Positions 1 to 52,139 of a stretch of DNA of 64,000 nt are shown piece by piece (the stretch's first letter is position 1; each line of letters begins with the position of its first letter). The notes below the pieces were generated by a model. The model was not told the DNA's origin, ran no database searches, and saw only the letters and a list, made by a program, of their open reading frames with translations. Made by a program: the position numbers and the translations under genes. This DNA is from Verrucomicrobia bacterium UBA2281 (lineage in GTDB: Bacteria; Verrucomicrobiota; Kiritimatiellia; CAIQIC01; Lenti-01): assembly GCA_002347655.1 (NCBI GenBank), contig DDWR01000009.1, positions 861 through 64,860 of the forward strand, read 5' to 3'.

Positions 1-1393
1 CGAAACTGAAGTTGTGGGTCTGCCGGAATTCGTAGAGATGGTCGGGCAGCAGATCGACCGTGGTGGCGGAAGTATTGTCGCCCTTGGCCTCGTATTCGTC
101 CACCGGCGTGCCGCCGGGCACGATCTGGTCCATGTCGAGGTTGCCCCACGACGCCGCGAAGAAGTTGACGTACTGGTTCTGCGTGTCGCCCGTGTTCAGG
201 TGGATGTAGACCGTGCTGTTGACGACGTTGGACATTTCCTTGTAGCCGATGACCGGCACCTGGTGGGCGCCGCCGAAGTAGGTGCCCCACGAACCGATGC
301 TGATGGGCCGCCCCGCGTTGATTTCGGTTTTGATGCTGCCCAGGTAGTTCGATTTTCCGGTCGTGGTGTTCGTCGGTCCGTGGTAGGTCGCGTTGAACGC
401 CAGCCCGTTGGTATTGTTGGAGAATTCCTCCAGGATGACGTCCTCGTCGCCCCGGCTGAGTCCGTAGTACTGGTGCGCCAGGGCCGCCACCACGTTCGAC
501 ACGAACGCCTGGTCGTGGCCGGGCGCCGCCGGCTGCGTCGGCTGCAGCAGCGGCGCGGTGCCGTTGTCGATCAGATTCCAGTACTGGACGCCCGACGAAT
601 AGGCATTGCGGTCCCAGTAGGCGAAGATGTCGGTGTTGGCCGTCGCCCAGCAGATGCCGCCCGCGCCGGCCGGGTAGTACATCGTCGGATTGTTCAGATA
701 GGTCGGCACCGCCGAGGTCGCATTGGTGGCGCCGGGAATATAATTCTCGGCCTTGACGCCGTCCGGCGGCGGGGCCGTCCCAACGTAGTCGAGGATGAGC
801 TGCGCGGGCGAACCGCCATACAAGCCCGCGCTTTCCACCGTCAGGATGGTCTGGTAGCCGCCGGACGACGCCGTGTTGCGCATCTGGATGGCGATGGGGT
901 TCCCGCTGGCCCAGCCGGGGCGGTTCACGATCTCCTGCACGATGGTCTTGATGTCCGGACTGGTATAGACGCCGTCCTCCGCCCAGGCCGAAGCCACGGT
1001 CCACGCCACGGCGGCGGTCGTGACCGAGCGCGCGCCGAGGTACGCGCCGACGTGGAAGGAATCCGTGGCGTCGTAGGCCTCGCCGCGCAGCGAAAACGCC
1101 GACGCCCCCGTGCCCGCCGCGTAGGCCTGGACGCGCAGATACGCGTGGGTGATGACCGTCTTGTTCGTCAGCGGGATGCCGGCGAACCGGAACGCGCCGA
1201 TCAAATAGGGCGCGGCATAGCCGGTGTAGTAGCCACAGGCCACGAACTCGGCGGTCCAGTTGTCGCTGGAAATGGTCAGCCCGTAGGCGTCGTCGTTCGC
1301 GTCGGACACGACGTTGGTGATGATGGCGGCGGGCGCGGAAACGGCGAGCGCGAGAAGCGCGGCCGACACCGGAATCCAGAGGCGCGGCTTCAC
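1..1393 (-). CDS. Secreted papain-fold cysteine peptidase, streptopain (C10)-like; 3' end runs off the window
   Basis: My own reverse translation from GTG at 1393 (GGAGG upstream) stays open to position 1. It is absent from the ORF track because there is no stop in the window. It has signal peptide VKPRLWIPVSAALLALAVSAPAA, candidate nucleophile GGICWATANTDIFAYWD and His motif FGGAHQVPVIGY. GTGA overlap with the upstream gene's stop. Confidence 0.6.
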   Translation of the reverse strand, partial: MKPRLWIPVSAALLALAVSAPAAIITNVVSDANDDAYGLTISSDNWTAEFVACGYYTGYAAPYLIGAFRFAGIPLTNKTVITHAYLRVQAYAAGTGASAFSLRGEAYDATDSFHVGAYLGARSVTTAAVAWTVASAWAEDGVYTSPDIKTIVQEIVNRPGWASGNPIAIQMRNTASSGGYQTILTVESAGLYGGSPAQLILDYVGTAPPPDGVKAENYIPGATNATSAVPTYLNNPTMYYPAGAGGICWATANTDIFAYWDRNAYSSGVQYWNLIDNGTAPLLQPTQPAAPGHDQAFVSNVVAALAHQYYGLSRGDEDVILEEFSNNTNGLAFNATYHGPTNTTTGKSNYLGSIKTEINAGRPISIGSWGTYFGGAHQVPVIGYKEMSNVVNSTVYIHLNTGDTQNQYVNFFAASWGNLDMDQIVPGGTPVDEYEAKGDNTSATTVDLLPDHLYEFRQTHNFSF

Positions 1394-2133
1394 GGCGTGC
1401 CTCCTTTCGCGCCGGCCGGCACGGCCAGCGGAATCACCGCCGTCGCCTTCGCGGCCCGGTAGGGCTGCCACGCCTCCGCGCACAGCCGTTCGCGCTCAGG
1501 ATCCGGAGCGGCGGCCGCCTTGCGGAGCTGCGCGCGCGCCTGCGCCTCACGCTCCGGCACCGCCGCCTGCGTCCGCAAATCCACCACCAGCGCTTCGCCT
1601 GCCCCAGAAGCCGGCTCCAGCACGAAAGCTTCGTCGAAGAATCCCAGTAGCAGGGGCCGGCGCACGCGCCACGCGACGCCGCGCTGCGCCCGGTCCGCCA
1701 AGGCCAGCGCATTGGCTTCGCGCACGAGATGTCCCGGCAAGCCCAGATGGCAGCGCAGGACCGGAGGTTCCGTGTCGTCCGCCGCGACGACGATCGTGGC
1801 AAACCGGTCTTCCCCGCGCAGTTCGGGTTCATAGCCCGTCGCGCCTTCGCCGGCGGCGGCGATGTCCGCCCGCGCCTTCGCGACGAATGCCGCCGGCGTT
1901 TCCGCCGCGGCGCGGCGCTTGGCCCCGCGCTCGAAAATGAAGGCGTACGCCGCCACGGCGCCGTTCAGATCATACAGCGGCACGTCGTCCGCCGCCGCCC
2001 ATTCCCCCGGATAGAACCGCGGCAGTTCGGCTTCCGCCGCGCGAAACGCGTCGTCCCGCGCCACCGGCGCCGCCGGCGCCGCCAGCGCCCAGCCCAACGC
2101 CATTCCCGCGATCGCCCAACCCAACGCCTTCAT
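1390..2133 (-). CDS. Secreted protein resembling the streptopain propeptide/Spi (I69) inhibitor domain
   Basis: Internal start MKALGWAIAGMALGWALAAPAAP (signal peptide) with AGGAGG upstream. PLYDLNGAVAAYAFIF and RFATIVVAADDTEPPVLRCHLGLP match the I69 pattern (..FvIvSaDdr.p.iLgYs..G). Translationally coupled to the peptidase. Confidence 0.5.
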   Translation of the reverse strand: MKALGWAIAGMALGWALAAPAAPVARDDAFRAAEAELPRFYPGEWAAADDVPLYDLNGAVAAYAFIFERGAKRRAAAETPAAFVAKARADIAAAGEGATGYEPELRGEDRFATIVVAADDTEPPVLRCHLGLPGHLVREANALALADRAQRGVAWRVRRPLLLGFFDEAFVLEPASGAGEALVVDLRTQAAVPEREAQARAQLRKAAAAPDPERERLCAEAWQPYRAAKATAVIPLAVPAGAKGGTP

Positions 2134-3701: not shown

Positions 3702-4721
3702 ATGGACGAAGCCCCGCAACAACCGCCACCGACCGGACGGAAAAAGATCCGCCTGACGAAATCCGAAGCCTACGCCATGCAGCTTTCGTCGCCCCGGAAA
3801 AAGCGCATCGCGTTCGGCGCAGTCGGACTGGCGATTGCCGCCGCGCTCGCCGCCGCGCTGTGGCATTTCCAGGATGGATGGCTGCCCTACTGGCTACCGG
3901 AAAAGGCCGAAACCGCACCGGCCGACGCGCCGGAAACCGCGCCGGTCCCGGCAGCCGCCCCAACGGCTCTCTCACTTCCGGCCGCAATTGATCCGGCCGC
4001 TCCGGCCGAAGCCCCGGCCACGCTGGACTTCTTGACGGCCACGGTCTGGGACCATCCCGAGTTTCTTCGCGGCGTGCGCCTGTTCAACCAGGCGCTCGAC
4101 CGCTACCGCGCCTACCAGCGCGACGGCCGACCGCGCGAACTGTTGCAACAGATCGACGACGGCGCGCTACAGGCCGCCGCCGCGTTCGGGAAACTCCGCG
4201 CAGAGGCGCCCGCCGGCGTGCCGCTGGCCGAATACGTTCGGCGCAGCCATACGTTGGCCCAGGCCGCGCGCGACCTGGCCCGGCCCGCCGTTGCGCCGGC
4301 GCCCGCGGCGACGGCCGCGGTCCCGCCGGCGCGCCCGCGGCCCACGGCGCCGCCGCCGAAAGCCGGCGAAGCCTGGCAAGACCCCGACTATCTGGAAGGC
4401 GCCCGCCTATTCAACCAGGCGCTGGCGCAGTACCAGCAGTTCCTCGCGGACAAATCGCGCCTGGCGTTGCTGGCCGCCATCGAAGAAACCGCGTTCCAGG
4501 CCGTGAAAAAGTTCGAAGCGCTGCAAGGGCTGGCCCCCACGAACGTGCCGTTGGGAGACAATATTTCCCAGTGCTACCGCCTGATCAGCGACTGCCGCCG
4601 CCAGAATCTGGAAGCCGGCGGCGCCGGCCCCGGCGGAACAGATCACGACGGCGGCGCGCGCGGCAAGGTCGTGGGCCCCAACCGCCGCCCCGCCCTGCCC
4701 GCCTACCAGCCGGCGCCATAG
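3702..4721 (+). CDS. Membrane-anchored hypothetical protein with two tandem copies of a W.DP(E/D)(F/Y)L.G.RLFNQAL helical domain
   Basis: The tail of ORF 3576-4721 is coding-like. One TM helix (IAFGAVGLAIAAALAAALW). The internal duplication is visible in the protein. Start is uncertain (3702 or 3777). Confidence 0.55.
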   Translation: MDEAPQQPPPTGRKKIRLTKSEAYAMQLSSPRKKRIAFGAVGLAIAAALAAALWHFQDGWLPYWLPEKAETAPADAPETAPVPAAAPTALSLPAAIDPAAPAEAPATLDFLTATVWDHPEFLRGVRLFNQALDRYRAYQRDGRPRELLQQIDDGALQAAAAFGKLRAEAPAGVPLAEYVRRSHTLAQAARDLARPAVAPAPAATAAVPPARPRPTAPPPKAGEAWQDPDYLEGARLFNQALAQYQQFLADKSRLALLAAIEETAFQAVKKFEALQGLAPTNVPLGDNISQCYRLISDCRRQNLEAGGAGPGGTDHDGGARGKVVGPNRRPALPAYQPAP

Positions 4722-4815
4722 AACTTTTCCGGCTTGTGGCGGCGGACCCCGTCGGGGACCGGCAGAAGCAGAACAAGAACCGGACCGGCCTCCGCGAGGC
4801 TGGCTGCAATCCCCA

Positions 4816-16749: not shown

Positions 16750-17166
16750 ATGCCCATCTCCTACCAGACCGTTCCCGGAAAGCGCCGCATCGTCGCGGAA
16801 GTCTCGGGCGCGATCGGCCAGCAGGATCTCTTCGCCTACCAGAAGGCCGTCGCCACGCGGCCGGAGTGGGCCGGCTACGACGAACTCTTCGACGTCAGCC
16901 GCGTCGACAGCCTGCTGGACATCCGCATCGACAACCTGAAAGCCCTGGCCGATCTCGCGGCCTCCATGGACAAACCCGGCTTGCCCTCCAAGTTCGCCAT
17001 CGTCGCGCCGCAGGACCTGTACTTCGGCCTCGGCCGCATGTACGAATCCCTGCGCGAATCCGCCCCGCATTCCTCCCGGCGGATCGCCGCCTTCCGCTCC
17101 CGCGCCGAAGCCGAACGCTGGCTCGACGCCCCGGTGGACGAACCCGCCGAAGCGGATTTTACGTAG
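16750..17166 (+). CDS. Hypothetical cytoplasmic protein (138 aa)
   Basis: Coding-like composition, no recognisable motif. The last codons and the TAG stop lie inside the first copy of the 31-bp repeat. Confidence 0.55.
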   Translation: MPISYQTVPGKRRIVAEVSGAIGQQDLFAYQKAVATRPEWAGYDELFDVSRVDSLLDIRIDNLKALADLAASMDKPGLPSKFAIVAPQDLYFGLGRMYESLRESAPHSSRRIAAFRSRAEAERWLDAPVDEPAEADFT

Positions 17167-17218
17167 AACGTAAAAACTTTCGCGCGGTTTTACGTAGCAC
17201 GTAAAAACTTTGCGCCGC
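17155..17218 (+). repeat. Tandem dimer of the 31-bp palindromic element TTTTACGTRGAACGTARAAACTTT(C)GCGC (locus A)
   Basis: Copies at 17157-17187 and 17188-17218. Arms TTTTACGT/ACGTAAAA. The same dimer occurs at 40133-40193 (inverted) and 48340-48401. Confidence 0.85.
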
Positions 17219-34077: not shown

Positions 34078-34886
34078 TTGTAGAACAGCCTCGTCACGAA
34101 GTAGCCCAGCGTCAGGATCAGCAGGAACGACACGATCACCGTGCGGCGCGTCGCGCGACCCACGCCGACCGCGCCTTCGCGCGTCGTGAAGCCCTGGTAG
34201 CACGCCACGCAGGTCACGATCAGCCCGAAAATGAACGCCTTGAGCAGCCCCACCCACAGGTCCTTGTTGTGCGTGTAGCGGAAGGCGATGTCGTAGTAGG
34301 CCTCATAGGACACCCCCAGCATCGTCGCGCCCACCACCGACCCGCCGAACAGCCCGATCAGATCCATATAGGCCGTCAGCATCGGCGTCATCACCGCCAA
34401 CGCCACCAGGCGCGGCATCATCAGGTAGCGCCGCGGATCGATCCCCATCACGTCCAGCGCGGCGATTTCCTCGGACACCGTCATCGTGCCCAGCTGCGCG
34501 GCGATGGCCGAGCCCACGCTGGCCGCGATCACCAGCCCCGTCATGAACGGCCCCATTTCGCGCAGCATGGCGTTGCACACCAGCGTGCCGATCTGGCCTT
34601 CCTGGCTGAAGATCCGCAGCGCCAGCCCGAGCTGCAGCGCCAGGATCATCCCCGTGAACAGCCCCACCACCGACACCACGCCCAGGCTCTTGATCCCCAC
34701 GACGTAGCACTGCTGCATCACGTCGGTCCGGTTTTTCCGGGAGAACGCGTACGGCACCTGCAGGATCGCCCCGCCCAGCAGCAGCAGCGCGCGGCCGCTG
34801 CCCTGGCACGCCAGGATCACGCGCCGCCCGAGCGCGACGAGCGCGTTCGGCGGCGGTTCGAAATACTGTTGTTCGCGCGTGATCAT
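34074..34886 (-). CDS. mlaE: MlaE-family ABC permease
   Basis: LREMGPFMTGLVIAASVGSAIAAQLGTMTVSEEIAALDVMGIDPRRYLMMPRL. ATGA overlaps on both sides. Confidence 0.9.
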   Translation of the reverse strand: MITREQQYFEPPPNALVALGRRVILACQGSGRALLLLGGAILQVPYAFSRKNRTDVMQQCYVVGIKSLGVVSVVGLFTGMILALQLGLALRIFSQEGQIGTLVCNAMLREMGPFMTGLVIAASVGSAIAAQLGTMTVSEEIAALDVMGIDPRRYLMMPRLVALAVMTPMLTAYMDLIGLFGGSVVGATMLGVSYEAYYDIAFRYTHNKDLWVGLLKAFIFGLIVTCVACYQGFTTREGAVGVGRATRRTVIVSFLLILTLGYFVTRLFYK

Positions 34887-36499
34887 TCGTTGTCGGCGCC
34901 CGGTTCGGCCGGCGGCGCCAGCCGCACCCGGCCCAGCCACAGGAAGCGCACCTGACGATTTGTAGCCGTTCGGTCGTAGGCGATCAATCCTTTCAGCACC
35001 GACCAGCGGCGGGCCGCGCCGCTCCCCGCCCGCTCGTGCCGCCACAGCGGGAAGAGCGTCGTGGCCTGAGCGCCGTCCGCGCGCCGCGCGCCGCGGTAGA
35101 TGCCCCACAACGCGTCGACGTCGCGGTCATCGCCGTTGGCGCGCACGTCCAGCAGCGTCCAGAGCGGCGCCCAGCTCCGTTCCACCGCCGGCGGGCGTCC
35201 CCCCGGCCACAGGTCCAGCAGCCGCGTGCGCGAGGTATCCGTCTCCGCGTCCCACTGGCGGGAGTACAGCGGCCACAGCTTCGTCCGGCGCGCCACCACC
35301 GGCAAATCGTTCGTGGTCGCCGCGGCCGCCGCGGACGCCGGCGTTTTCGCCGCAAACGGGAACCCTTTGCGGTCGGCCACAGGCGGCAGGGCCGTTTCCG
35401 TCGCGCAGGTCCACAGCGGCGTCAGCATCCAGCGCGTCCGTTTCCGGTGCGCGAATTCGTTGACCTCGCGGCTGGCGAGCGGCCACAGCCAGAACCGCCG
35501 CTCCAGCGGGCCGTCCTGGCGGAACCCGTACAGCGGCCAGACGTAGAGCTTCTCCCGCACGCCCGTCTCGCGCTGGAAAAACGGCCACGGACAATACGTC
35601 CGGTTCAACTGCTCGCCGCGGACGAACTGGAAGAACGGCGGCAGGACCATCCAGCCTTTCTGGCTGGCCAGATCGATCCGCCCGGCCAGCGGGAAGAGCA
35701 CCCACGCCGTGCCGCTGGCTTTCGGATGCACGTAGCGCGCGTGGTTCCACAGCGGCCACAGGACAGCCGTTTTCTCGAACTGGCGGACGCTCTTCGTCCG
35801 GGTATACAGCGGAAAAACCCGGAACCGTTCCAGGTGGCCATCGGGCGTCGTGGACCGCGAATAGATCGGCCAGAGCACGTTGACGGTGCGCACGTCGTTG
35901 ACTTGCGTCTCGGCCCACAGCGGCCACAGCGCGAACCGGATGCGGTCCTTGAAGAGGAAATTCCGGATCTCGCCGCCCAGCGGAAACAGCGCCGCATAGC
36001 CCGCCCCGTCCGCCGCGCGCCCGTGGAACCACAGCGGCAACAGCCAAAAACGATAGCGCGAGGCCGGATCTTCCCGGTCGTCGTCGAGGAACCACGCCAG
36101 CGCCACCCGCCAGGATTGCTCTTTCCCGAACGTCTTGCCCGACGCGATCGGCCAGCAGAAATCCCACGAATCGCGGTCCGCTTCCGGATCGACCGCCCGC
36201 GCCCACAGCGGCCGCGGAAACGCCATCAGTTGCTTCCCGTCGGGACTGGCCGCGTCTTCCCAGAACGGCCCCGCCGCGCGGAAGCGGCCGTTGCCGTCCG
36301 CATCGACCATCCACGACGCCAGCGGCCCCCAGTCGGCTTCCGCGATCCACGGCGCCGGCTCATCGGCCCAGGCCGGCGCGCAAACCATGGCACACAGAAA
36401 AATCAGACTTTTCCACGCCGTGGAAAAGCCTTTCTTCCGCCCAACTTGGAAATTGGACGTTGAATATTGAATATTGGAAATCCCTCCCCCCCCCCTCAT
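34883..36499 (-). CDS. Exported protein built from about 18 short (W/F)P(L/I)(W/Y/F) repeats; unknown family
   Basis: Start ATG 36499 overlaps the hydantoinase stop (ATGA). Signal peptide KSLIFLCAMVCAPAWA. Repeats include LWPLWA, LWPIYS, VFPLYT, LWPLWN, VWPLYG, LWPLAS, LWPLYS and LFPLWR. Confidence 0.65.
   Translation of the reverse strand: MRGGGGISNIQYSTSNFQVGRKKGFSTAWKSLIFLCAMVCAPAWADEPAPWIAEADWGPLASWMVDADGNGRFRAAGPFWEDAASPDGKQLMAFPRPLWARAVDPEADRDSWDFCWPIASGKTFGKEQSWRVALAWFLDDDREDPASRYRFWLLPLWFHGRAADGAGYAALFPLGGEIRNFLFKDRIRFALWPLWAETQVNDVRTVNVLWPIYSRSTTPDGHLERFRVFPLYTRTKSVRQFEKTAVLWPLWNHARYVHPKASGTAWVLFPLAGRIDLASQKGWMVLPPFFQFVRGEQLNRTYCPWPFFQRETGVREKLYVWPLYGFRQDGPLERRFWLWPLASREVNEFAHRKRTRWMLTPLWTCATETALPPVADRKGFPFAAKTPASAAAAATTNDLPVVARRTKLWPLYSRQWDAETDTSRTRLLDLWPGGRPPAVERSWAPLWTLLDVRANGDDRDVDALWGIYRGARRADGAQATTLFPLWRHERAGSGAARRWSVLKGLIAYDRTATNRQVRFLWLGRVRLAPPAEPGADNE
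36486..36495. repeat. Homopolymeric C10 (G10 in the mRNA) tract at codons 2-5 of the repeat-protein gene
   Basis: Counted directly. It is the longest homopolymer I noticed in the window. It is followed in mRNA sense by an AT-rich stretch with CAATATT repeated twice (36441-36485). Confidence 0.85.
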
Positions 36500-37860
36500 G
36501 TCAGGAGCTTCCCCTTCCCCGGCGTCCCCACGAATTCCCCGTTCCGCACCATGATCTCGCCGCGGACGGTCACGACTTCCGGCGCGCCGACCACCTCGAA
36601 GCCCTCGTACGGATTGTAGTCGATATCCAGGCTCTGGGTCTTTTGCGAAATCGTGCGCCGCGCCTTGGGGTCCCACACCACGAGGTCCGCGTCGAAACCG
36701 GGCGCGACCGTGCCCTTGCGGCCCCACAGGCCGAAGATCTTCGCGGGGTTTTCCGCCGCCACTTCCACGAAGCGTTCGAGCGAAATCTTCCCGCCGACCA
36801 CGCCGGCGGTGTAGGCCAGCGCCACGCGCTCCTCCACGCCCGCGAGGCCGTTGGGGATCTTCGTGAAATCGCCCCGCCCCAGCGTTTTCTGGCCGTTGAA
36901 ATCGAACGGGCAGTGATCCGTGCCCAGCGTGTCGATGCGACCGTCCGCCAGCCCCGCCCACAGCGCGGCCTGGTCGGATTTCTCCCGCAGCGGCGGCGAA
37001 AGGATCCACTTCGCGCCTTCGAAATCCGGTCGCTCGGCGTACGACTTGTCGAGCGTCAGGTACTGGATCATCGTTTCGACGTAAAGCCGCGGCAGCTTGC
37101 CGCGGAACCGGTCGGCCATCGTCAGCGCTTCCGCGCAGCTCAGGTGCACGACGTAGGCCTTGGCGCCCGCCGCCGCCGCGAAGGTCAGGAACTTGCAAAC
37201 GCCTTCCGCCTCCACCATCGGCGGACGGCTCGGCTCGTGCCACTCGGGCCCCGTCTTGCCTTCGGCCAACAGCTTCTGCTGCAGGGCCGGAATCAGCTCC
37301 GCGTTCTCGCAGTGCGCCATCACGACCAGATCGTGCGCCGCCGCGAACCGCAGCACGCGGAACAGATCCTCGTCGCCGATCGCCAGCGCCGGCTTGTAGG
37401 CCAGGTAGACCTTCAGCGATTTCAGTCCTTTGGCCACCAGCCGCTCCAGCTGCTTTTGCAGTTCGGCATCGAATTTCCGCACCATCAGGTGCAACCCCAC
37501 GTCGCACGAGGCCTTGCCCGCAATCTGCGCTTCCCACGCCGCCCAGGCCTCGTCGAAATCCTTTTCCCGCCCGGCCCCCGCGAAATCCATGAGGCACGTC
37601 GTCCCGCCCAGCAGCGCCGCGCGCGTGCAGTTGGCGTAGTCCGACTTCGCCGTCACGTGCACCAGCGGCAGGTAGGCGTGCACGTGCGGATCGATGAACC
37701 CCGGAAACACCAGCTTGCCGGCCGCCTCGACCACCGTCGCCCCCGGCGGCGGCGAGAGCCCCTTCTCGACCTTGGAGATCTTCTCCCCCTCGCACCATAC
37801 GTCCGCGGCGCAGCGGCCGCGTCCCGCCACCACCTCGCCGCCGCGGATCAACAGGCCCAT
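36496..37860 (-). CDS. Dihydropyrimidinase / D-hydantoinase
   Basis: GFIDPHVHAYLP, LKVYLAYK (carboxylated Lys context), VMAHCEN, YVVHLS, GTDHCPF. Confidence 0.9.
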   Translation of the reverse strand: MGLLIRGGEVVAGRGRCAADVWCEGEKISKVEKGLSPPPGATVVEAAGKLVFPGFIDPHVHAYLPLVHVTAKSDYANCTRAALLGGTTCLMDFAGAGREKDFDEAWAAWEAQIAGKASCDVGLHLMVRKFDAELQKQLERLVAKGLKSLKVYLAYKPALAIGDEDLFRVLRFAAAHDLVVMAHCENAELIPALQQKLLAEGKTGPEWHEPSRPPMVEAEGVCKFLTFAAAAGAKAYVVHLSCAEALTMADRFRGKLPRLYVETMIQYLTLDKSYAERPDFEGAKWILSPPLREKSDQAALWAGLADGRIDTLGTDHCPFDFNGQKTLGRGDFTKIPNGLAGVEERVALAYTAGVVGGKISLERFVEVAAENPAKIFGLWGRKGTVAPGFDADLVVWDPKARRTISQKTQSLDIDYNPYEGFEVVGAPEVVTVRGEIMVRNGEFVGTPGKGKLLT

Positions 37861-37874
37861 GGGCTTCTTCCCCG

Positions 37875-38237
37875 CTATTTCTTCAGGACCTTGACGATCC
37901 GGTTCTTCGCGTCGACCTTCACGACGGTCGCCTGGAATTTCTTCGCCTCCGCGTCGTCCATCTCCGCGTAGGCGATGACGATGATCGTATCGCCCTTGTA
38001 GGCCAGCCGGGCCGCCGGCCCGTTGAGCATCATCTGGCCCGTGCCGCGCTTGCCGCGGATGACGTAGGTGACGAACCGCTCGCCGTTCTGCAGATTCAGG
38101 ACCTGGACCTGCTCGCCCGCCAGCAGATCCGCCGCTTCCATCAGGATCGGATCGATGGCGATGCTCCCCTCGTAGTCGAGTTCGAGCCCCGTCACCGTCG
38201 CGCGGTGGATTTTCGATTTCAGCATGGTCCGTTGCAT
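37875..38237 (-). CDS. panD: Aspartate 1-decarboxylase
   Basis: [29 protein letters not shown] (self-cleavage G-S site). Confidence 0.92.
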
Positions 38238-38318
38238 CGTCCAGTCCTTTCTAAAGAAACCATACCTTATCCCGAATCCCCCCGCCACTTCAAGGGCCGA
38301 GAATCCCCGCCTTCGGGA

Positions 38319-38347
38319 TTGAATCCCGCCGCGTCCTCCCGCTTAAT
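38319..38347 (+). promoter_or_regulatory. Candidate promoter TTGAAT-N17-CTTAAT ending 7 nt before ATG 38355
   Basis: Read directly. No SD between the -10 and the ATG. Confidence 0.3.
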
Positions 38348-38354
38348 TCCCCCC

Positions 38355-40121
38355 ATGGCCAGCGATCTTGCAGCTTCCGCCGAACCCCTCGTCGTTCTTC
38401 GCGACGAGGCCGCCGGGCGTTGGCTGCGCTTCCGCCAGCCCGTCGCGACCGTGGCCGCCGGGCGGGTCGAGGACGTCCGGCCCCGCCTGCGCGAAGTCGC
38501 GGAAGCCGTCGAGCGGCGCCGTCTCCACGCCGCCGGCTGGGTGGCCTACGAAGCCGCGCCGGCGTTCGACGCCGCCCTCGCCGTCCGCCCGGCCGGCCCG
38601 CTGCCCCTGTTGTGGTTCGGCCTCTTCGACGCCCCCGAACCGATCGAGCTGCCGCCGGCAAGCGCTCCTGCGCCCGCCGGCTGGCAACCCGACGTCGCGC
38701 CGGCCGCCTACGCCCGCGCCTTCGCCGAAATCAAACGCCGCATCCGCGCCGGCGACACCTACCAGGTCAATTATTCCTACCGCCTGCGGCGCGACGCCGG
38801 CACGGCCGATCCCTGGGAAACCTTCCTCGCGCTGGTCCACGCCCAGCGCGCGCCCTTCGGCGCCTACGTCGCCGCCGGCCCGTGGCGCCTGTGCAGCGCC
38901 TCGCCGGAGCTGTTCTTCCGGCTCGACGGAACGCGCCTTGAAACGCGCCCCATGAAGGGCACCGCGGCGCGCGGGCTTTCCTCCGCCGCAGACCGCGCAC
39001 AGCTCGCCGCCCTGCTCGCCTCCGAAAAAGAGCGCGCCGAAAACCTCATGATCCTCGACATGGCGCGCAACGACCTCGGCCGCGTCGCCCGACCCGGCAC
39101 CGTCCAGGCCCTCCGCCTATGCGAACCGGAAAAATATCCCACCGTCTGGCAGCTCACGTCCGCCGTCGCCGCCGAGACCGACGCGTCCGTCGCCGAAATA
39201 TTCACCGCGCTGTTCCCGCCCGCGTCCATCGTCGGCGCGCCCAAGGCGCGCACGATGGAAATCATCGCCGGCCTCGAAACCTCCCCGCGCCAGGCCTACA
39301 CCGGCGCCATCGGCTTCCTCGCCCCCGGCCGCCGCGCGCAGTTCAACGTCGCCATCCGCACGCTCTTGGCCGACGTCCGTTCCGGCCGCGCCGAGTACGG
39401 CGTCGGCGGCGGCGTCGTCTGGGATTCCGACCTGGACGCCGAACAGGCCGAATGCCGCGCCAAGGCGCGCATCCTCTCCGCGCCGGCGCGCCCGCCGTTC
39501 GACCTGCTCGAGACCCTGCTGTGGACGCCTGCCGACGGCATCCGCCTGCTCGACCTGCATCTGGCGCGCTTGCGGGAATCGGCGGACTACTTCGATTTTC
39601 CGTGCGACCTCGCCCGCGTGCGCGCGGCGCTCGCCGACCTGGTCCGCACGTTCCCCGCCGCGCCGCAGCGCCTGCGCCTGCGGCTCGCCGCGGACGGCAC
39701 GCCGACGCTCCAGGCCGCGCCCCTCGCCCCTCTCGCCTCCGACCCCTTCTTCCGCGTCGCGCTCGCCCGCCGCCCCGTGGATCGCAACGACGTTTTCCTC
39801 TACCACAAGACCACGCACCGCCGCGTCTACGAAGCGGCCAAGGCGGATTTCCCCGGCCACGACGACGTGATTCTCTGGAACGAAGCCGGCGAGGTCACCG
39901 AGTCCACGATCGCCAACCTCGCGGCGGAAATCGACGGCGCGCTGTGCACGCCGCCCGTGGCCTGCGGCCTGCTGCCGGGCGTCGCCCGCGCCGAACTCCT
40001 GGCCCGCGGCGTCCTGCGCGAACGGCGCCTTTCCCTGGACGACCTCCGCGGCGCGCCCCGGCTCTTCCTGCTCAACTCCGTGCGCGGCCTGGTCCCTGCC
40101 GTCCTCGATCCGCCCGAATGA
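38355..40121 (+). CDS. pabB: Fused aminodeoxychorismate synthase component I / aminodeoxychorismate lyase
   Basis: Chorismate-binding core (RPMKGTAARG, ENLMILDMARND, PPASIVGAPKARTMEII, YTGAIGF). C-terminal class IV aminotransferase-like PabC region (FLYHKTTHR, ESTIANL). Confidence 0.85.
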   Translation: MASDLAASAEPLVVLRDEAAGRWLRFRQPVATVAAGRVEDVRPRLREVAEAVERRRLHAAGWVAYEAAPAFDAALAVRPAGPLPLLWFGLFDAPEPIELPPASAPAPAGWQPDVAPAAYARAFAEIKRRIRAGDTYQVNYSYRLRRDAGTADPWETFLALVHAQRAPFGAYVAAGPWRLCSASPELFFRLDGTRLETRPMKGTAARGLSSAADRAQLAALLASEKERAENLMILDMARNDLGRVARPGTVQALRLCEPEKYPTVWQLTSAVAAETDASVAEIFTALFPPASIVGAPKARTMEIIAGLETSPRQAYTGAIGFLAPGRRAQFNVAIRTLLADVRSGRAEYGVGGGVVWDSDLDAEQAECRAKARILSAPARPPFDLLETLLWTPADGIRLLDLHLARLRESADYFDFPCDLARVRAALADLVRTFPAAPQRLRLRLAADGTPTLQAAPLAPLASDPFFRVALARRPVDRNDVFLYHKTTHRRVYEAAKADFPGHDDVILWNEAGEVTESTIANLAAEIDGALCTPPVACGLLPGVARAELLARGVLRERRLSLDDLRGAPRLFLLNSVRGLVPAVLDPPE

Positions 40122-40132
40122 GGCCCCGCGCC

Positions 40133-40193
40133 GCGCGAAAGTTTTTACGTTCCACGTAAAAAGCGGAAAAACTTTTTACGTTCCACGTAAAAA
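40133..40193 (-). repeat. Tandem dimer of the 31-bp palindromic element (locus B, inverted orientation)
   Basis: GCGCGAAAGTTTTTACGTTCCACGTAAAA followed by GCGGAAAAACTTTTTACGTTCCACGTAAAAA. Lies between convergent pabB and tsaB. Confidence 0.85.
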
Positions 40194-40814
40194 TCAGGCG
40201 GGCGGCAGCGGCCGGCCGTCCGCGCCGAAGCGCGGCGCGGCGACGACGGCGGGATGCAGGTAGATCGGCTGGCGTTCTTCGCTGGCGCCGCCCGCGCAGA
40301 AGAGGCGGCCCACCCACTCGGCCCGGGGCGCGCGGTCCGGCGCCACCCAATGCGCGTCCGGCCAGGCCTGCCCGCGCGCGTCCTCCGGCAGCAGTCGCCA
40401 ATCGCCGATCCGGCCTTCGCGCCGCCCGAACAAGCCCGCCCAGATCGTCCCGCGCCGCGCGGCGCCGGAAACGACCAGCCGCGCGGCGTCCGGCTGCTCC
40501 GCGAAGATTTCCGCGGCGAGCGCCGCGGCGCTGGACGTCGTCCAGACGGGTTTGTTCTCCGGCAGCGCCCAGCCGTGGGCGGCCGTCAGGCTCACGCGCA
40601 GGCCCGTGTACGAACCCGGGCCGCGGCCCACCGCGAACGCCCCGACGTCCGCGAACGTCCAGCCGGCGCCGGCGAGCAGGTCCGCCGCCGCGGCGAACAG
40701 TTCCTGGCTGCGGCGGCCGCCGGCCGCCACCGCCGCGGCGGCGACGACGCGCGCGTCCTCCAGCAAGGCCAGGCCGCCCGCATCCGTCGAAAATTCCAGC
40801 GCCAACGTTTTCAT
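40194..40814 (-). CDS. tsaB: tRNA t6A37 threonylcarbamoyltransferase complex dimerization subunit
   Basis: MKTLALEFSTD ... FAVGRGPGSYTGLRVSLTAAHGWAL. Confidence 0.8.
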   Translation of the reverse strand: MKTLALEFSTDAGGLALLEDARVVAAAAVAAGGRRSQELFAAAADLLAGAGWTFADVGAFAVGRGPGSYTGLRVSLTAAHGWALPENKPVWTTSSAAALAAEIFAEQPDAARLVVSGAARRGTIWAGLFGRREGRIGDWRLLPEDARGQAWPDAHWVAPDRAPRAEWVGRLFCAGGASEERQPIYLHPAVVAAPRFGADGRPLPPA

Positions 40815-40873
40815 GCGCGGCACCCTAGCGGTTTTGCGCGGCGCGCGAAAGATTTTCGCGCGGCGCGCGGGCA

Positions 40874-40904
40874 CGAAAAAAACCGCGGCCTCGCGGCCGC
40901 GGTT
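40874..40904 (-). terminator. Rho-independent terminator after the HU gene
   Basis: Minus strand: AACCGCGGCC-GCGA-GGCCGCGGTT followed by TTTTTCGTG. Confidence 0.75.
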
Positions 40905-40925
40905 CGCGTTCATCGCGGGGATGAA

Positions 40926-46562: not shown

Positions 46563-48293
46563 GTGCCCCGGGCGTTTTCCACGCGGCGCTTCACCTTCGC
46601 CTACGCCGCGATCATGGCCGCGCTGATCGCGCTGGCCGCTTCCGCCCTCCAGCATCTGTCCCTGCAACGGCAGGCGCGCCAGCTCGAGCGCCGCCGGGAA
46701 TCCCTCCAGCATCTGCTCGTCTCGTCCTATCGGGAACTGGGCCCGGAACGCTTCCTCCCGTGGCTGGCGCGCGTGGATTTCCAGGCCTGGGCCGCGCCCG
46801 GCTGGAACCTGATCTGGCTGGCGGCCGACGGATCCGTCCGCTGGGCCGTCCAGCCGGCGGATCCCGCCCGCGTCCCCGCCGCCGGCCGCGCCGCGCTGAT
46901 CGCGCTGGCCGCCGGGGAACGCGTCGAAACCCACGACCTGGCCTTCCAGGCGGACGGACGGCGCGGCCGCGCCGACGTCCACCTCCTCGATCCCGCCGAT
47001 CCGGCGGCCGGCGGAATGCTGTTGCTCGTGCCGGTGCCGCGTTTTTTTTCCGACGCCGTCGATTTCTGGATCGCCGCCGCCGCCTTATTCCTCCTGTTGC
47101 TCGGCATCTTCGCCGTCTACCAGCGCCTGCTGCTCGGGCGCATCCGGCGGATCGTCCAGGCCCACGTCGCGGCCGGCACGGTTCCGCCCGGACCCGACCA
47201 GTTCCTCGAGACCTGGGCCGTGCAGCACGCCGCGCTCGCGTCCCGCCGGAAGTCGGAGGAACGCGACCCGTTCGACGCCCTCTTCGATCTTCTCCAGGAC
47301 GGCACCCTGGTGCTCGACGCCGCCAACCGCATCCTGCGCGCCAATGCGACCGCCAACCAGCTGCTGGCCCCCGGCGCCGCGCCGCTGGTCGGACGGGCGC
47401 TGGCCGAGTTGCCGGATTCCGACGCCTTGGCCGGGCTCGCGGACGACATCCGGACCGCGGCCGCTTTCCGCTCCGCCGAAATCCAGCTGCGCGGCGACGG
47501 CCCGCAGTGCCAGGCCGCGGGCATTCCCCTCCACGAAGAAGACGGCCCGGCCGGCGGCCACGTCCTGCTGGTCCTGCGCGACGTCTCCCGCATGCGCCAG
47601 CTCGAACGCGCCGGCGAAGAATACGCGACCAACGTCTCCCACGAACTCAAGACCCCGCTGACCCTCATCCTCGGCTACACCGAAACCCTCCTGTCCCACG
47701 CCGACACCGAGCCGGAGTTCCGCGACCGGTCGCTGCGCACCATCGAGCACCACGCGCGGCGCATCCTGCGCATCGTCGACGACCTGCTGCGCCTGGCGTG
47801 GCTCAAGAACGAGGCCGAGTCCGTCGGCCAGGTCCCGCGCGCGCCCGTGGCGGTCGCCGCGGTCGCCGCCGAAGCCGTCGCCAGCTGCCGCGAGTGGGCC
47901 CGCAACGCCGGCGTCGCCGTCGACGTCCACGTGCCCGACGGGCTGACGTGGAGCCTGCACGCGGGCCTGATGGAAGAAGCCCTCGCCAACCTCCTCAAGA
48001 ACGCCATTCTCTACGCCCTCGTCGGCCCCGTCGAAATCCGCGCGCGCGTCCTCGCCAACGGCCATCTCGAATGGGCGGTCGTCGACCGCGGCCCCGGCCT
48101 CAAGCCCGACGACGCCCAGCGCATCTTCGACCGCTTCTACCGCGCGGACAAGGGCCGCGCGCGCGCCACGGGCGGCAGCGGGCTCGGCCTGCCCATCGTC
48201 CAGCAGATCGTCCAGGCCCATCGCGGCACCGCCCGCGTCGAAACCGCCCCCGGCGAAGGCTGCACCTTCCTCCTCGAAATCCCGCCCGCCTGA
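46563..48293 (+). CDS. Sensor histidine kinase (PhoR-like architecture)
   Basis: Two TM helices, PAS-like region, H-box NVSHELKTPLT, N/G boxes LLKNAILYA, DRGPGL, GGSGLGLPIV. Confidence 0.9.
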   Translation: MPRAFSTRRFTFAYAAIMAALIALAASALQHLSLQRQARQLERRRESLQHLLVSSYRELGPERFLPWLARVDFQAWAAPGWNLIWLAADGSVRWAVQPADPARVPAAGRAALIALAAGERVETHDLAFQADGRRGRADVHLLDPADPAAGGMLLLVPVPRFFSDAVDFWIAAAALFLLLLGIFAVYQRLLLGRIRRIVQAHVAAGTVPPGPDQFLETWAVQHAALASRRKSEERDPFDALFDLLQDGTLVLDAANRILRANATANQLLAPGAAPLVGRALAELPDSDALAGLADDIRTAAAFRSAEIQLRGDGPQCQAAGIPLHEEDGPAGGHVLLVLRDVSRMRQLERAGEEYATNVSHELKTPLTLILGYTETLLSHADTEPEFRDRSLRTIEHHARRILRIVDDLLRLAWLKNEAESVGQVPRAPVAVAAVAAEAVASCREWARNAGVAVDVHVPDGLTWSLHAGLMEEALANLLKNAILYALVGPVEIRARVLANGHLEWAVVDRGPGLKPDDAQRIFDRFYRADKGRARATGGSGLGLPIVQQIVQAHRGTARVETAPGEGCTFLLEIPPA

Positions 48294-48339
48294 TCGCCCC
48301 GCGCCGGATTTCCCGGCGCCCGCGGAAACGTTGCGCGGG

Positions 48340-48401
48340 TTTTACGTGGAACGTAGAAACTTTCGCGCGGTTTTACGTAGAACGTAGAAACTTTGCGCGC
48401 G
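48340..48401 (+). repeat. Tandem dimer of the 31-bp palindromic element (locus C)
   Basis: TTTTACGTGGAACGTAGAAACTTTCGCGCGG followed by TTTTACGTAGAACGTAGAAACTTTGCGCGCG. Lies between the kinase gene and the EamA gene. Confidence 0.85.
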
Positions 48402-48457: not shown

Positions 48458-49378
48458 ATGACCCCCGCCGTTTCCAACCGTCCCTTCGCCGCCGCGGTCG
48501 GCGCGATGCTGCTGGCCCTGTTTTTCTGGGCGGTGGTGCCGCTGATGCTGGTGCATTTCACGCGGTGGATGGATCCGTGGACGGCGAACGGCGCGCGCTA
48601 CTTCTTCGCGGCGTCGTTCTGGCTGCCGTTCGTGGTGCGCACGCTGCGGGGCATGGCGCCGCCGGAGCGGCGCGCGGTCTGGCGGGCGGCGCTGGTGCCG
48701 GCGGCGGCCCATTGCGCGGCGCAGGTGTTCTTCGGCCTCGCGCCGTACCACAACAACGCGACGATGCTGAACTTCGGCTGCCGGCTGTCCATCCCCTTCG
48801 CCACCCTCTTCGGCTTCTGGCTGCTGCCGGGCGAACGGCCGCTGATGCGCGCGCCGCTGTTCTGGGCCGGACTGGCCTGCGCGCTCGGCGGCTTCGTGCT
48901 GATGTTCGAGAACGGCTTCGGCACGGACAGCACCTCGGCGACGGGCATGCTGCTGCTGACGGGCTTCGCGGCGACGTGGGGCCTCTACGCGGTGTTCGTG
49001 CGGCGCAACCTGTCGGTCTATCCGGCGCATCTGGCCTACGGCGTCGTCAGCCTGTTGACCGGCGCGCCGCTGGTGGCGCTGATGTTCCGCTTCGGCGATT
49101 GGCGCGCGCTGGCGGGGCTGTCCGCCGGCCAATGGTTCTGGCTGATCCTGTCCGCGCTGCTGGGCCTGACGCTGGGCCACCTGTTCTACTACCGCGCCAT
49201 CCGCGTCCTCGGCCCCATCGCATCCGAAGGCAGCCTGCTGCTGATTCCCTTCCAGACGGCCGCGCTGGCCCATTTCTGGATGGGCGATCGGCTCTCCCCT
49301 TCGCAATGGGCGGCCGGCGTCGGCCTGATCCTGGGCTGCACCCTGCTGCTGCGCGCGCGCTTCCGCATGCGCAGCTGA
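48458..49378 (+). CDS. EamA/DMT-family transporter
   Basis: 10-TM protein with duplicated EamA halves. Real part of ORF 46760-49378. Confidence 0.8.
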   Translation: MTPAVSNRPFAAAVGAMLLALFFWAVVPLMLVHFTRWMDPWTANGARYFFAASFWLPFVVRTLRGMAPPERRAVWRAALVPAAAHCAAQVFFGLAPYHNNATMLNFGCRLSIPFATLFGFWLLPGERPLMRAPLFWAGLACALGGFVLMFENGFGTDSTSATGMLLLTGFAATWGLYAVFVRRNLSVYPAHLAYGVVSLLTGAPLVALMFRFGDWRALAGLSAGQWFWLILSALLGLTLGHLFYYRAIRVLGPIASEGSLLLIPFQTAALAHFWMGDRLSPSQWAAGVGLILGCTLLLRARFRMRS

Positions 49379-49800: not shown

Positions 49801-51498
49801 TCAGGGCTCCGGGACCGGAGGGACTTGCCGCGCGGAATCGCCGGCGCGAAGGCGGACCCACTCCAAAGCCAGTTCCTGCCGCCGCTGCCGGGCGACGTCC
49901 AGCCCCAGCACGCCGACCAGCAGGCGGGTCTCGGCCACCACGACCGGAATCTCCCGCAGCCCGGCTTGCTCCATTCGTCCGATGGCTTCGTCCAAGCGGA
50001 CGCCCGTCGTCAGGACGCCGGGCGCCGGTTCGAGGACGTCGGCGGCGATCACGGCCGGCCAAGCATGCTCGCTGGCCAACAGCGGCCGGAGCGACGCCAT
50101 GCGGACGAGCCCCGCCAAACGGCCCTGCGGATCGACGACCGGACAATCCGTGAAATTGCCCGCCGCGAACGCTTCCATGATCGTGCGGAGGTGGTCCGTT
50201 TCCCGGACGGCAACCGGATCGCGGTCCATGACTTGTTCGACCGGGGTCTGGGCCGCGAAGGCCGCCCCGTCCACCTCGGCGCCGGCCGCAGGGTCGCCCC
50301 CCTCCTGCCGCAAGATGCGGTTCCCGGAATACGCGATGGCCCACGCCCCGAGCGGCGCGGTCAGCAGCACGCTCAGCACCGCCACGGCCAAAATGATTTG
50401 CCCCGGTCCGGTCGCCATGCCGGCGGCCTGCATGGCGACCAGCGGCGCGCCGCCGATGGCGGCCTGCACCGTCGCCTTGGGCAGATAGGCGATCACCACG
50501 AACAGCCGCTCCGCCGGCGTCAGTTCGCTGCCCAGCAGGCACAGCCACGTGCCGGCGCTCCGGGCGAGGAGCCCCAGCCCCACCAGCGCGCTGCCGGCCA
50601 GACCGGCCTGCCACGCGACGCCCACGTCCACCTGCGCCCCCACCAGCGTGAACAGCATGATCTGCGCGAACACCCAGATCTTCGCGAGCTTGGCGGACAG
50701 CTCGTGGGCCATGTGCTCGCTTTTTTCCAGGATGATCGCCCCGATGGCCATCACCGCCAGCAGCGCCGCGAACGGCACGAATTCCTCGACGTGCCGTTCC
50801 GCCCCGACCAGCACGATGGAAACGCCCAGGATGGCCAACAGCCGCTTCGTGGCGCGCGGATTGAAACGCCGGAACGTGCGGTAGAGCACCCAGCCGAACG
50901 CCGAGCCCGCGGCGATGCCCGACAGAATGGAGATCGGAATGCCGGCCAGCTTCCACGGCAGGTTCACCTGCCCGCCCGTGTAGAGTCCCAGCAGCGCGCT
51001 GAACACCACGATGACGAACACGTCGTCGATCGACGACGCGGCGATGACCAGCGTGGGGATGGCCTTGTCCGTCCCCTTCCGGCGCGCCGCGAAATCGAGC
51101 ATCAGCGGCACCACGACCGCCGGCGAGACCGCCCCCAGCACCGTCCCCAGGATCGCCGACTCCACATAGGACAACCCGAGCAGGCGCGGGCCCAGCGCCG
51201 TCACCGCCAGCGCCTCCAGCGTGGCCGGCACGAACGACAGCAGCAGCGCCTGCACGCCCACGCGCCGCAACGTGTCCTTGTGCAGCTCGAACCCCGCGCG
51301 CAGCAGGATCACGATCAGCGCGATCATCCGCATGTCGGCCGAAAACGCCAGCAAGCCGGGATCCAGCGCCCCCAGCATGCAGGGGCCGAGCACGACGCCC
51401 ACCAGCATCATGCCGACCAGTCCCGGCACCCGCAGCTTCCGGAAAAGAAAATCCACCAGCAGCCCGAGGATCACCAACGTCGCCAGGCCCAACGCCAT
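49801..51498 (-). CDS. Cation:proton antiporter (CPA1/NhaP-like) with C-terminal CBS-domain pair
   Basis: 565 aa. N-terminus MALGLATLVILGLLVDFLFRKLRVPGLVGMMLVGVVLGP, about 12 TM helices, and two CBS-like repeats in the C-terminal 150 aa. Confidence 0.9.
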   Translation of the reverse strand: MALGLATLVILGLLVDFLFRKLRVPGLVGMMLVGVVLGPCMLGALDPGLLAFSADMRMIALIVILLRAGFELHKDTLRRVGVQALLLSFVPATLEALAVTALGPRLLGLSYVESAILGTVLGAVSPAVVVPLMLDFAARRKGTDKAIPTLVIAASSIDDVFVIVVFSALLGLYTGGQVNLPWKLAGIPISILSGIAAGSAFGWVLYRTFRRFNPRATKRLLAILGVSIVLVGAERHVEEFVPFAALLAVMAIGAIILEKSEHMAHELSAKLAKIWVFAQIMLFTLVGAQVDVGVAWQAGLAGSALVGLGLLARSAGTWLCLLGSELTPAERLFVVIAYLPKATVQAAIGGAPLVAMQAAGMATGPGQIILAVAVLSVLLTAPLGAWAIAYSGNRILRQEGGDPAAGAEVDGAAFAAQTPVEQVMDRDPVAVRETDHLRTIMEAFAAGNFTDCPVVDPQGRLAGLVRMASLRPLLASEHAWPAVIAADVLEPAPGVLTTGVRLDEAIGRMEQAGLREIPVVVAETRLLVGVLGLDVARQRRQELALEWVRLRAGDSARQVPPVPEP

Positions 51499-51702: not shown

Positions 51703-51732
51703 TCCCAAAGCTCCCGCCACCGAAACCTTCGG

Positions 51733-51792
51733 CGACAGGAGTCATCAGTCCGGGCAACCCGAACGGTTCGGCGGGGGACTCCATCCCCTTGC
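51733..51792 (-). promoter_or_regulatory. Candidate fluoride riboswitch aptamer (crcB motif)
   Basis: Minus strand: GGGGAUGGAGUCCCCC GCCGAACCG UUCGGGUUGCCCGGA CUGAUGACUCCUGU. P1 is GGGG/CCCC, the pseudoknot is GGAGUC/GACUCC, and the hallmark is CUGAUGAnnCCU. Confidence 0.6.
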
Positions 51793-51802
51793 AACGAGAG
51801 CA

Positions 51803-51831: not shown

Positions 51832-51858
51832 GGATAAACGCGGCGGCCGCCGCGGCAA

Positions 51859-51998
51859 GGGCGCATCTGCGATTCGGTGCAAGGATCCAGCCTGAAGGCT
51901 GGACTACGAACGGGTCTGGTATGTAGTCCACGCTTTAGCGTGTGGCTGTCCTTTTCGGCCTGAAACGCGAGTGGATGCACCGAATCGCAGATGTGCCC
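51859..51998. repeat. 140-bp element bounded by a 23-bp inverted repeat (18 bp perfect) enclosing three hairpins
   Basis: CATCTGCGATTCGGTGCA (51864-51881) pairs with TGCACCGAATCGCAGATG (51976-51993). Internal hairpins: CCAGCC-TGAA-GGCTGG, GGACTAC-N15-GTAGTCC, CACGC-TTTA-GCGTG. Confidence 0.5.
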
Positions 51999-52018
51999 CA
52001 GTTGCGCCGCCCCGGCGC

Positions 52019-52063: not shown

Positions 52064-52139
52064 GCCAAAGTAGCTCAGCTGGCAGAGCACCGCATTCGTA
52101 ATGCGACGGTCGTCGGTTCGAATCCGACCTTTGGCTCCA
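52064..52139 (+). tRNA. tRNA-Thr (anticodon CGU)
   Basis: Hand-folded. Acceptor GCCAAAG/CTTTGGC, D arm GCTC..GAGC, anticodon loop TTCGTAA, T arm GTCGG-TTCGAAT-CCGAC, encoded CCA, then a T-run. Confidence 0.93.

Follow-up and report, generated by a model that had tools for sequence, protein, structure and literature searches.

Repeat arrays in the window

We identified a family of short palindromic repeats in the 64-kb stretch of DNA analysed here (the window), which has a GC content of ~68%. The window contains six copies of TTTTACGT-N3-ACGTA[A/G]AA arranged as three head-to-tail dimers, the period of which is exactly 31 bp. Three tandem dimers with this period had been described in an earlier note on this DNA, and they are borne out by matches to TTTTACGTNNNACGTAAAA with three or fewer mismatches, which occur as three pairs (at 17157, 17188, 40143, 40174, 48340 and 48371) and are found in none of 100 dinucleotide-preserving shuffles of the window. 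The palindrome family ranks top in a repeat search of the window, both as a direct and as an inverted repeat.

Array A (17157..17218, plus strand) consists of two type-1 units. Their cores span 17157-17175 and 17188-17206, each followed by an ACTTT tail (17176-17180 and 17207-17211), with the spacer CGCGCGG at 17181-17187. The array overlaps the 3' end of an ORF at 16750..17166 that encodes 138 amino acids and has no Pfam match. The ORF ends ..GAT TTT ACG TAG within the first unit, confirming the earlier suggestion that the repeat supplies its last codons (three in number) and its TAG stop (17164-17166). The ortholog of this ORF in a related genome (L066) stops sooner, at ..WLDANEE*, which indicates that in the window array A provides the C-terminal ..DFT and the stop. 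On its other side, the array ends ~28 nt from the ATG at 17246 of a gene encoding a metallo-beta-lactamase-fold protein.

Array B (40131..40193, minus strand; cores at 40143-40161 and 40174-40192) also consists of two type-1 units, here inverted and situated between convergent genes. Its head side begins 1 nt past the stop of a tsaB-like gene (40194..40913, minus strand), and its tail side lies ~10 nt past the stop of a gene encoding a pabB-like/aminotransferase-IV fusion (38232..40121, plus strand). Array C (48340..48401, plus strand; cores at 48340-48358 and 48371-48389) has two type-1 units carrying an A17G variant; its neighbours are a PAS histidine-kinase gene (46563..48293), whose stop is 47 nt upstream, and an EamA transporter gene (48458..49378) ~57 nt downstream. 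The spacer pair CGCGCGG then GCGC.. is common to loci A and C, in agreement with the differences between first and second copies noted previously, whereas the spacers at locus B, TTCCGCT then CGCGCGG, do not follow this pattern.

A seventh unit of the same family, absent from the earlier note, is a singleton of a second arm type and forms a perfect palindrome (TTTTCCACGCCGTGGAAAA) at 36409-36427, where its neighbours are an amidohydrolase gene (36496..37860, minus strand) and a gene at 34883..36388 (minus strand). On the minus strand GATTTTTCTG comes after the palindrome, which was flagged as terminator-like.

Several other features were observed in the window. An AT-rich direct repeat, TTGAATATTGAATATTGG, is present at 36460-36477, in the gap that separates the amidohydrolase stop from the type-2 unit, and a sequence resembling it (..GGACTTGATGATTGGATATTGAATATTGG) adjoins the arrays in L014, L054 and L082; this repeat could serve as promoter or operator. 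At 51729-51797 on the minus strand there is a fluoride riboswitch (RF01734, 40.7 bits, above the gathering threshold), upstream of a 565-aa membrane protein gene (49801..51498, minus strand) whose product looks from its sequence like a cation/H+ antiporter. Just upstream of a tRNA gene (52064-52136) there is a 37-nt inverted repeat (51845-51881 and 51976-52012), the arms of which are 81% complementary and 94 nt apart.

Distribution and anatomy of the repeat

A collection of species-representative genomes was scanned with TTTTACGTNNNACGTANAAANTTT. Among the matches listed there were at least 99 blocks (each up to 8 kb) from 8 MAGs labelled Kiritimatiellia, Verrucomicrobia, 'Spartobacteria' and, in one case, 'Methanospirillum'. 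The array flanks on the contig from the 'Methanospirillum' MAG (L054, CAZXRT010000020.1) are ~85-95% identical to those of the Kiritimatiellia contigs L008, L014 and L082, and on this sequence similarity the contig is probably mis-binned. Parts of the window are 78-90% identical at the DNA level to contigs from four of the 8 MAGs, which places the window in the same genus-level group as those MAGs, yet in none of those assemblies. Viral contigs searched for the repeat gave no matches, and a comparison of the repeat with Rfam returned nothing at the gathering threshold and no more than noise at E<1. Much is known about REP-type repeats in Proteobacteria. A search of 8.3 million papers found none of 11 unit sequences, and in the literature searched there was no account of repetitive extragenic palindromic repeats in Kiritimatiellia and no description of REP-type repeats in the PVC superphylum.

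The density in the window is three arrays and one singleton per 64 kb, and hundreds of copies genome-wide, as had been extrapolated before, are plausible. Many arrays are within ~100-300 bp of a contig end, as in L002, L023, L026, L030, L047, L048, L060, L070 and L087. These positions suggest that short-read assemblies of the genomes are broken at the repeat and that copy numbers in the MAGs are underestimates.

The anatomy of the repeat was examined in 740 kb (99 loci and the window), which contain 307 units in 108 arrays. The 31-bp unit consists of a 19-bp palindrome, a conserved ACTTT tail, and a variable GC-rich spacer of 7 nt that is most commonly CGCGCGG. The palindrome, earlier given as 31 bp, thus measures 19 bp inside a 31-bp unit. 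In it, T4 and A4 enclose a 4-nt inner arm and its complement, which flank a 3-nt centre. In a logo of 234 oriented units, positions 1-24 are conserved, reading TTTTACGT[A/G]G[A/c/t]ACGTAAAAACTTT. Conservation is highest in the outer T4/A4 arms and in the right arm and tail (ACGTAAAAACTTT), where every position reaches at least 0.94.

A second arm type, TTTTCCAC/GTGGAAAA, shares genomes and arrays with type 1, and hybrid units also occur. When arms were counted in 19-mers of the form TTTT-N11-AAAA, a pattern that makes no assumption about structure, the inner arms were ACGT/ACGT in 201 cases and CCAC/GTGG in 22; hybrids, in which the pairing is broken, account for ~12% of units. Distant relatives have units of identical architecture, with type-2 arms in L103 and L104 and CCAA/TTGG arms in L106 and L107, and CCAT/GTGG arms are found among them as well. 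Pairing was assessed in 34 distinct units picked solely by their TTTT...AAAA ends. Pairing cells amount to 93.4%, compared with 87.2±1.3% in shuffles (none of 500 reaches the observed value), and both sides change in three of four variable pairs. This excess over shuffles and the two-sided changes imply that self-complementarity is under constraint.

The predicted hairpin of a single type-1 unit is weak, at -4.5 kcal/mol. Compared with shuffled sequences, array A folds no better on either strand and array C no better on the plus strand, whereas locus B and the minus strand of array C do fold better (z of -2.4 to -2.65). A hairpin extended and GC-clamped by the spacers was considered and rejected: the complementarity is 4.09 as compared with 4.21 in shuffles, and the MFE is -10.5 as compared with -10.8. 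The spacers on either side of a unit also show no covariation that would extend the stem. The sequence GT[A/G]G occupies unit positions 7-10, where it forms arm and loop and is not a 5' head. An alternative parse, in which GTRG is a head and the hairpin forms between neighbouring units, was rejected because type-2 arms match within units in 23 cases and between 31-bp neighbours in 2.

Across the 99 loci and the window, adjacent units are spaced by 31 bp (164 cases), 32 bp (13), 30 bp (1) or 22 bp (21), and no other spacing occurs. The arrays contain one to six units with a mode of three, and the de-duplicated numbers of arrays with one through six units are 9, 17, 32, 14, 3 and 1. The repeat is therefore not confined to tandem dimers as had been claimed; arrays in related genomes vary in size, and the window itself has the type-2 singleton. 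Nearly all arrays are uniform in orientation (+++ or ---), and inverted neighbours are found only at the 22-bp junctions, where tail-to-tail pairs form perfect 41-bp palindromes with arms that match in 21 of 21 cases. The first bases of successive spacers alternate only weakly, with C-then-G observed 33 times (25 expected) and CC 5 times (11.6 expected), and 12 of 23 dimers have C,G as their spacer first bases. A CRISPR array was rejected as an explanation. In CRISPRs the repeats measure 23 bp or more, are separated by unique spacers of ~25 bp or more, and are usually accompanied by cas genes, whereas the variable spacers here are 7-12 nt and GC-rich, one to six units occur at many loci, and no recurrent cas-like family is adjacent.

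Genomic context and turnover of the arrays

Genes were called with a purpose-written dicodon caller, which called 94.6% of the window as coding. Orthologous arrays were collapsed into 76 clusters and their contexts compared with a baseline of all gaps of at least 40 nt. Arrays lie between tandem genes in 38 clusters, convergent genes in 23 and divergent genes in 4, compared with 191, 50 and 56 in the baseline (chi-square p=7e-4). For most arrays, the distance from one end to a stop codon is 0-30 nt. The arrays are extragenic, mainly behind genes, and avoid divergent promoter regions, with the exception of an array that lies in-frame inside tilS. This mapping supports the bias towards gene 3' ends, but the stronger statement in the earlier note that all copies occupy such positions does not hold, given the tilS array and a few arrays upstream of genes; in L029 and L040 the array immediately precedes a Shine-Dalgarno sequence and an ATG.

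Between co-directional genes, the orientation that reads AAAGUUUUUACGU..ACGUAAAA in the mRNA sense is preferred by 25 to 8 (p=0.005). Arrays A and C of the window have the minority orientation. A link to replication direction was rejected, as array orientation is independent of local GC skew. No match to a sigma-70 promoter or terminator consensus was found at the three window arrays, and the only fit to an intrinsic terminator is the type-2 singleton at 36409-36427. Judged by eye, the arrays do not fit the -35/-10 spacing of ECF-type promoters. None of 21 loci is adjacent to a tRNA gene.

The array in tilS (encoding tRNA(Ile)-lysidine synthetase) has three units and is in-frame in the linker that joins the PP-loop domain (PF01171) to the TilS_C domain (PF11734) in L039 (ORF 397-1746, minus strand), L011 (4708-6048, minus strand) and L009 (2124-3554, plus strand), where it is translated as ..VENPSKVFTFYVKPAESFYVLRKNP... 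A protein search identified 114 full-length relatives of TilS, down to 45% identity, and nearly all have unit-derived peptides in the linker. The density of unit-peptide motifs in these relatives is 3.27 per 100 aa in the linker and 0.34 in the rest of TilS, a ~10-fold difference. At the DNA level, three distant relatives have intact tilS arrays (L104 10833-10944, L106 5872-5964 and L107 5885-5997) with lineage-specific arms and 21-31-bp spacing, and a fourth has a decayed remnant. Successive units with a 31-bp period are read in different frames, which argues that the nucleotide repeat is conserved and not the peptide. By lineage, the arms of tilS arrays are ACGT, CCAC/GTGG or CCAA/TTGG. Type-1 arms are restricted to the subclade with a TilS at least ~74% identical to that of L039; type 2 is the more widespread form and probably the older one. 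The only gene in which we saw an in-frame array is tilS, where the protein linker tolerates it. It provides an unusual case of a repeat kept at the nucleotide level inside an essential gene, and is the most unusual feature of the family.

Many arrays are syntenic between species, and orthologous arrays can differ by single units. Array C has two units and its ortholog in L032 has three, while array A consists of two type-1 units and its L066 ortholog of a type-1 unit followed by two of type 2. These differences in copy number and the range of array sizes speak against the proposal that the 62-bp dimer is the mobile unit, for which the spacers show only a weak alternation. In ~10 independent ortholog pairs, the array is conserved together with just one of its flanks, and an unrelated gene occupies the other, so that arrays mark synteny breaks. 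Array A and array C, the two window arrays with an ortholog, are both located at such a break (window 17130-17157 compared with L066 1232-1980, and window 48293-48340 compared with L032). An extra 217-aa nitroreductase-like gene separates the 138-aa gene from the array in L066, and a different 640-aa gene replaces the window histidine kinase in L032. With arrays both at contig ends and at synteny breaks, assemblies of the clade are probably fragmented by them. No orthologous empty sites were found in the sample, which favours occupied sites; the relatives of the tsaB-like gene lack array B, but synteny is broken there as well. Target-site duplications were not seen at the arrays.

The units also appear to change together at separate loci. 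The central triplet is GGA in 64% of units in the MAG RZYG, compared with 0-19% in the other five well-sampled MAGs, and among orthologous units the RZYG lineage has changed from A to G 16 times and in the reverse direction 5 times. The GGA excess and the parallel A-to-G changes indicate concerted evolution across dispersed loci. Cores at orthologous arrays have an identity of 0.90, followed by linkers (0.82), third codon positions (0.79) and other intergenic sequence (0.74), values that are suggestive of core conservation but are confounded by the fact that any unit aligns to any other at ~90%.

At three loci, an element of 106-114 bp with GC-rich subterminal hairpins is inserted in a unit at one fixed position (..AACG^AAAAACTTT). 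The insertions are at L051 1180-1293, L054 ~4642-4747 and L026 ~2627-2680, the last at a contig end, and L082 carries an uninterrupted ortholog of the L054 array. The insertion looks like a small non-autonomous element that targets the repeat unit; no transposase for it was identified. A search for a RAYT or IS200-like transposase in the 740 kb around the arrays, using both tblastn and a motif search, found none: the best tblastn hit with E. coli RayT has an E-value of 0.2 and is spurious, and the motif Y-x(2-4)-NP-x-K has no matches.

Interpretation and comparison with known systems

With moderate confidence, we interpret the element as a lineage-specific family of dispersed palindromic repeats that is REP/BIME-like. 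This reading draws on the abundance of the repeat, its restriction to a clade, the bias towards gene 3' ends, the constrained palindromy, the turnover and concerted evolution of the units, their targeting by an insertion, and the tilS array. The REP/BIME-type intergenic repeat proposed in the earlier note is thus supported, and there are many further copies in related genomes. In terms of the literature searched, it is an undescribed family of a known repeat kind, not a new kind of system. We count several observations against the REP/BIME-like reading. These are the direct tandem order of the units, unlike alternating BIMEs, the weak single hairpin, the hybrids that break pairing, the lack of spacer covariation, the lack of orthologous empty sites in a sample inclined to occupied ones, and the failure to find a RAYT in the 740 kb. 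In addition, no gene families recur beside the arrays beyond ABC ATPases and similar, and the invariance of T4/A4 and ACGTAAAAACTTT looks more like sequence-specific recognition than plain pairing.

In this reading, arrays would expand and contract through slippage or unequal exchange, and units would be homogenised among loci through gene conversion or by a putative trans-acting enzyme. The shared repeat sequence may favour rearrangements, which would leave arrays at synteny breakpoints. In transcripts, the arrays would give rise to rows of weak stem-loops, either between cistrons or at the 3' end of the mRNA, and by analogy these could modulate 3'-end decay or read-through instead of causing efficient termination. 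Alternatively, the repeat may act at the DNA level as cruciforms or candidate landing sites for proteins.

The near invariance of the outer arms and of ACGTAAAAACTTT, alongside a spacer that is free to vary, also fits arrays that are platforms for a dimeric sequence-specific protein (nucleoid-associated, a roadblock, or ParB/Noc-like) bound on one face of the helix. The only two spacings, 31-32 bp and 22 bp, would correspond to ~3 and ~2 helical turns, hybrid combinations of half-sites are tolerated, and the palindrome is kept even within the coding sequence of tilS; parS sites are known within genes. Palindromes composed of a T-run, a 4-bp core and an A-run also recall the style of parS, Noc and KorB sites. 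However, several inner arms coexist within one genome and shift between lineages, which would need several or co-evolving proteins, and the fixed spacing is a trivial outcome of duplicating a fixed unit. A 3:1 orientation bias in co-directional pairs is unexpected for a symmetric site, and no candidate protein was identified among the neighbours of the arrays. On balance we regard such platforms as a serious, though rather unlikely, alternative.

More ambitiously, the palindromes, phased at 2 or 3 helical turns, may be no passive junk but part of a system that spans the clade and is actively homogenised, with a permanent copy sheltered in-frame in the essential gene tilS. This copy would have been kept at the nucleotide level through all three reading frames and down to 45% TilS identity. 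The dispersed copies behind genes would be putative loading or roadblock sites for a factor that binds DNA or RNA and either structures the chromosome or brings transcription to an end, canonical terminators being scarce in the genome. If true, this would be a new kind of genome-organising element, but we think it improbable.

Arrays that act as intrinsic, possibly bidirectional, terminators at gene ends would account for the enrichment beside stop codons and between convergent genes. In the plus orientation the hairpin is followed by ACUUU, and the type-2 singleton, with a U-run on its transcribed strand, was caught by the terminator scan. In an intrinsic terminator, a U-tract comes directly after a GC-rich stem. 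The scan is negative at the three window arrays, however, where the hairpin is weak and array A folds no better than shuffles; the T-run belongs to the 5' arm, which leaves no U-tract after the stem, and the spacers add no GC clamp. Co-directional pairs prefer, by 25 to 8, the orientation that lacks even the ACUUU. Termination would moreover be harmful in the tilS array and in the arrays of L029 and L040 that precede genes. A terminator role is thus quite improbable, and the earlier judgement that the repeat is not a canonical terminator is upheld by the hairpin energy, the scan and the preferred orientation. A classical MITE-like transposon with the 62-bp dimer as its mobile unit is highly improbable: loci A and C of the window share a spacer pair and C-then-G spacers are somewhat overrepresented across the family, but arrays range from one to six units and most often have three, orthologous arrays differ by single units, the arrays have no terminal inverted repeats besides the unit itself, target-site duplications were not seen, and the 740 kb yielded no transposase. 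MITEs have terminal inverted repeats and target-site duplications, and they vary in presence and absence between genomes.

The REP/BIME-like family described here provides an independent case for how REP-type repeats persist and stay homogeneous, through its syntenic arrays and lineage-wide parallel substitutions. The repeat is also a natural marker for typing and binning uncultured bacteria of digesters and sediments, and already exposes the probably mis-binned contig (L054).

REPs, the palindromic units of E. coli and their counterparts in Pseudomonas and Stenotrophomonas, are imperfect palindromes of ~20-40 bp that can fold into a stem-loop. Their palindromy is maintained through complementary changes; they have a GT(A/G)G head 5' of the palindrome, occur in more than 100 copies per genome, and are grouped in BIMEs as regularly spaced REPs of alternating orientation (PMC2817692). 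They are also targets of specific insertion elements (PMC1525189). The family in Kiritimatiellia resembles them in being short, imperfectly palindromic and extragenic, with many copies in regularly spaced clusters, and in having a lineage-specific consensus with complementary arm changes (PMC2817692). It likewise sits mainly behind genes and not in promoters, serves as an insertion target (PMC1525189), is linked to rearrangements, and combines a homogenised consensus with long persistence at fixed loci (PMC2817692, PMC3116915, PMC1525189). In contrast to REPs and BIMEs, the units follow one another in the same direction at a constant 31-bp period and have an AT-rich stem base (T4/A4) in a 68% GC genome, as well as a conserved ACTTT tail. 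They lack a GT(A/G)G head 5' of the hairpin, with GTRG in the loop instead; no RAYT was found in the sampled 740 kb, and one array is translated.

REPIN doublets are mobilised by RAYT (PMC3116915, PMC3337134). The 22-bp tail-to-tail pairs resemble REPINs, as two inverted units form one 41-bp hairpin, and the long vertical persistence and population-like turnover are similar. However, doublets are a minority here (21 junctions compared with 178 direct), and the hallmark of REPIN-RAYT systems, a single-copy Y1 (HUH) transposase gene with an inverted unit on either side, was not found in the 740-kb sample. Rickettsia palindromic elements (RPEs) occur in-frame within conserved coding genes and are translated (PMC10969869), as is the array in the conserved gene tilS. 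RPEs differ in that they are ~150 bp long, have a conserved peptide and occur in many genes, whereas here only tilS was seen to carry an array and conservation is at the nucleotide level.

Mycobacterial VNTRs of the MIRU type are 40-100 bp, non-palindromic and co-oriented with genes. Like them, the arrays have head-to-tail units in short co-directional gaps, vary in copy number and can supply stop codons. However, the Kiritimatiellia units are palindromic and their orientation bias is the opposite (25 to 8). Operator and iteron arrays provide a further parallel, as the units lie at whole helical turns (22 and 31-32 bp); NrdR boxes are paired 31-32 bp apart, and plasmid iterons are spaced by 22 bp. 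Such arrays are confined to one or a few loci per genome, at regulatory sites or origins, and their cognate protein is known, whereas the arrays in Kiritimatiellia are scattered genome-wide, mostly behind genes.
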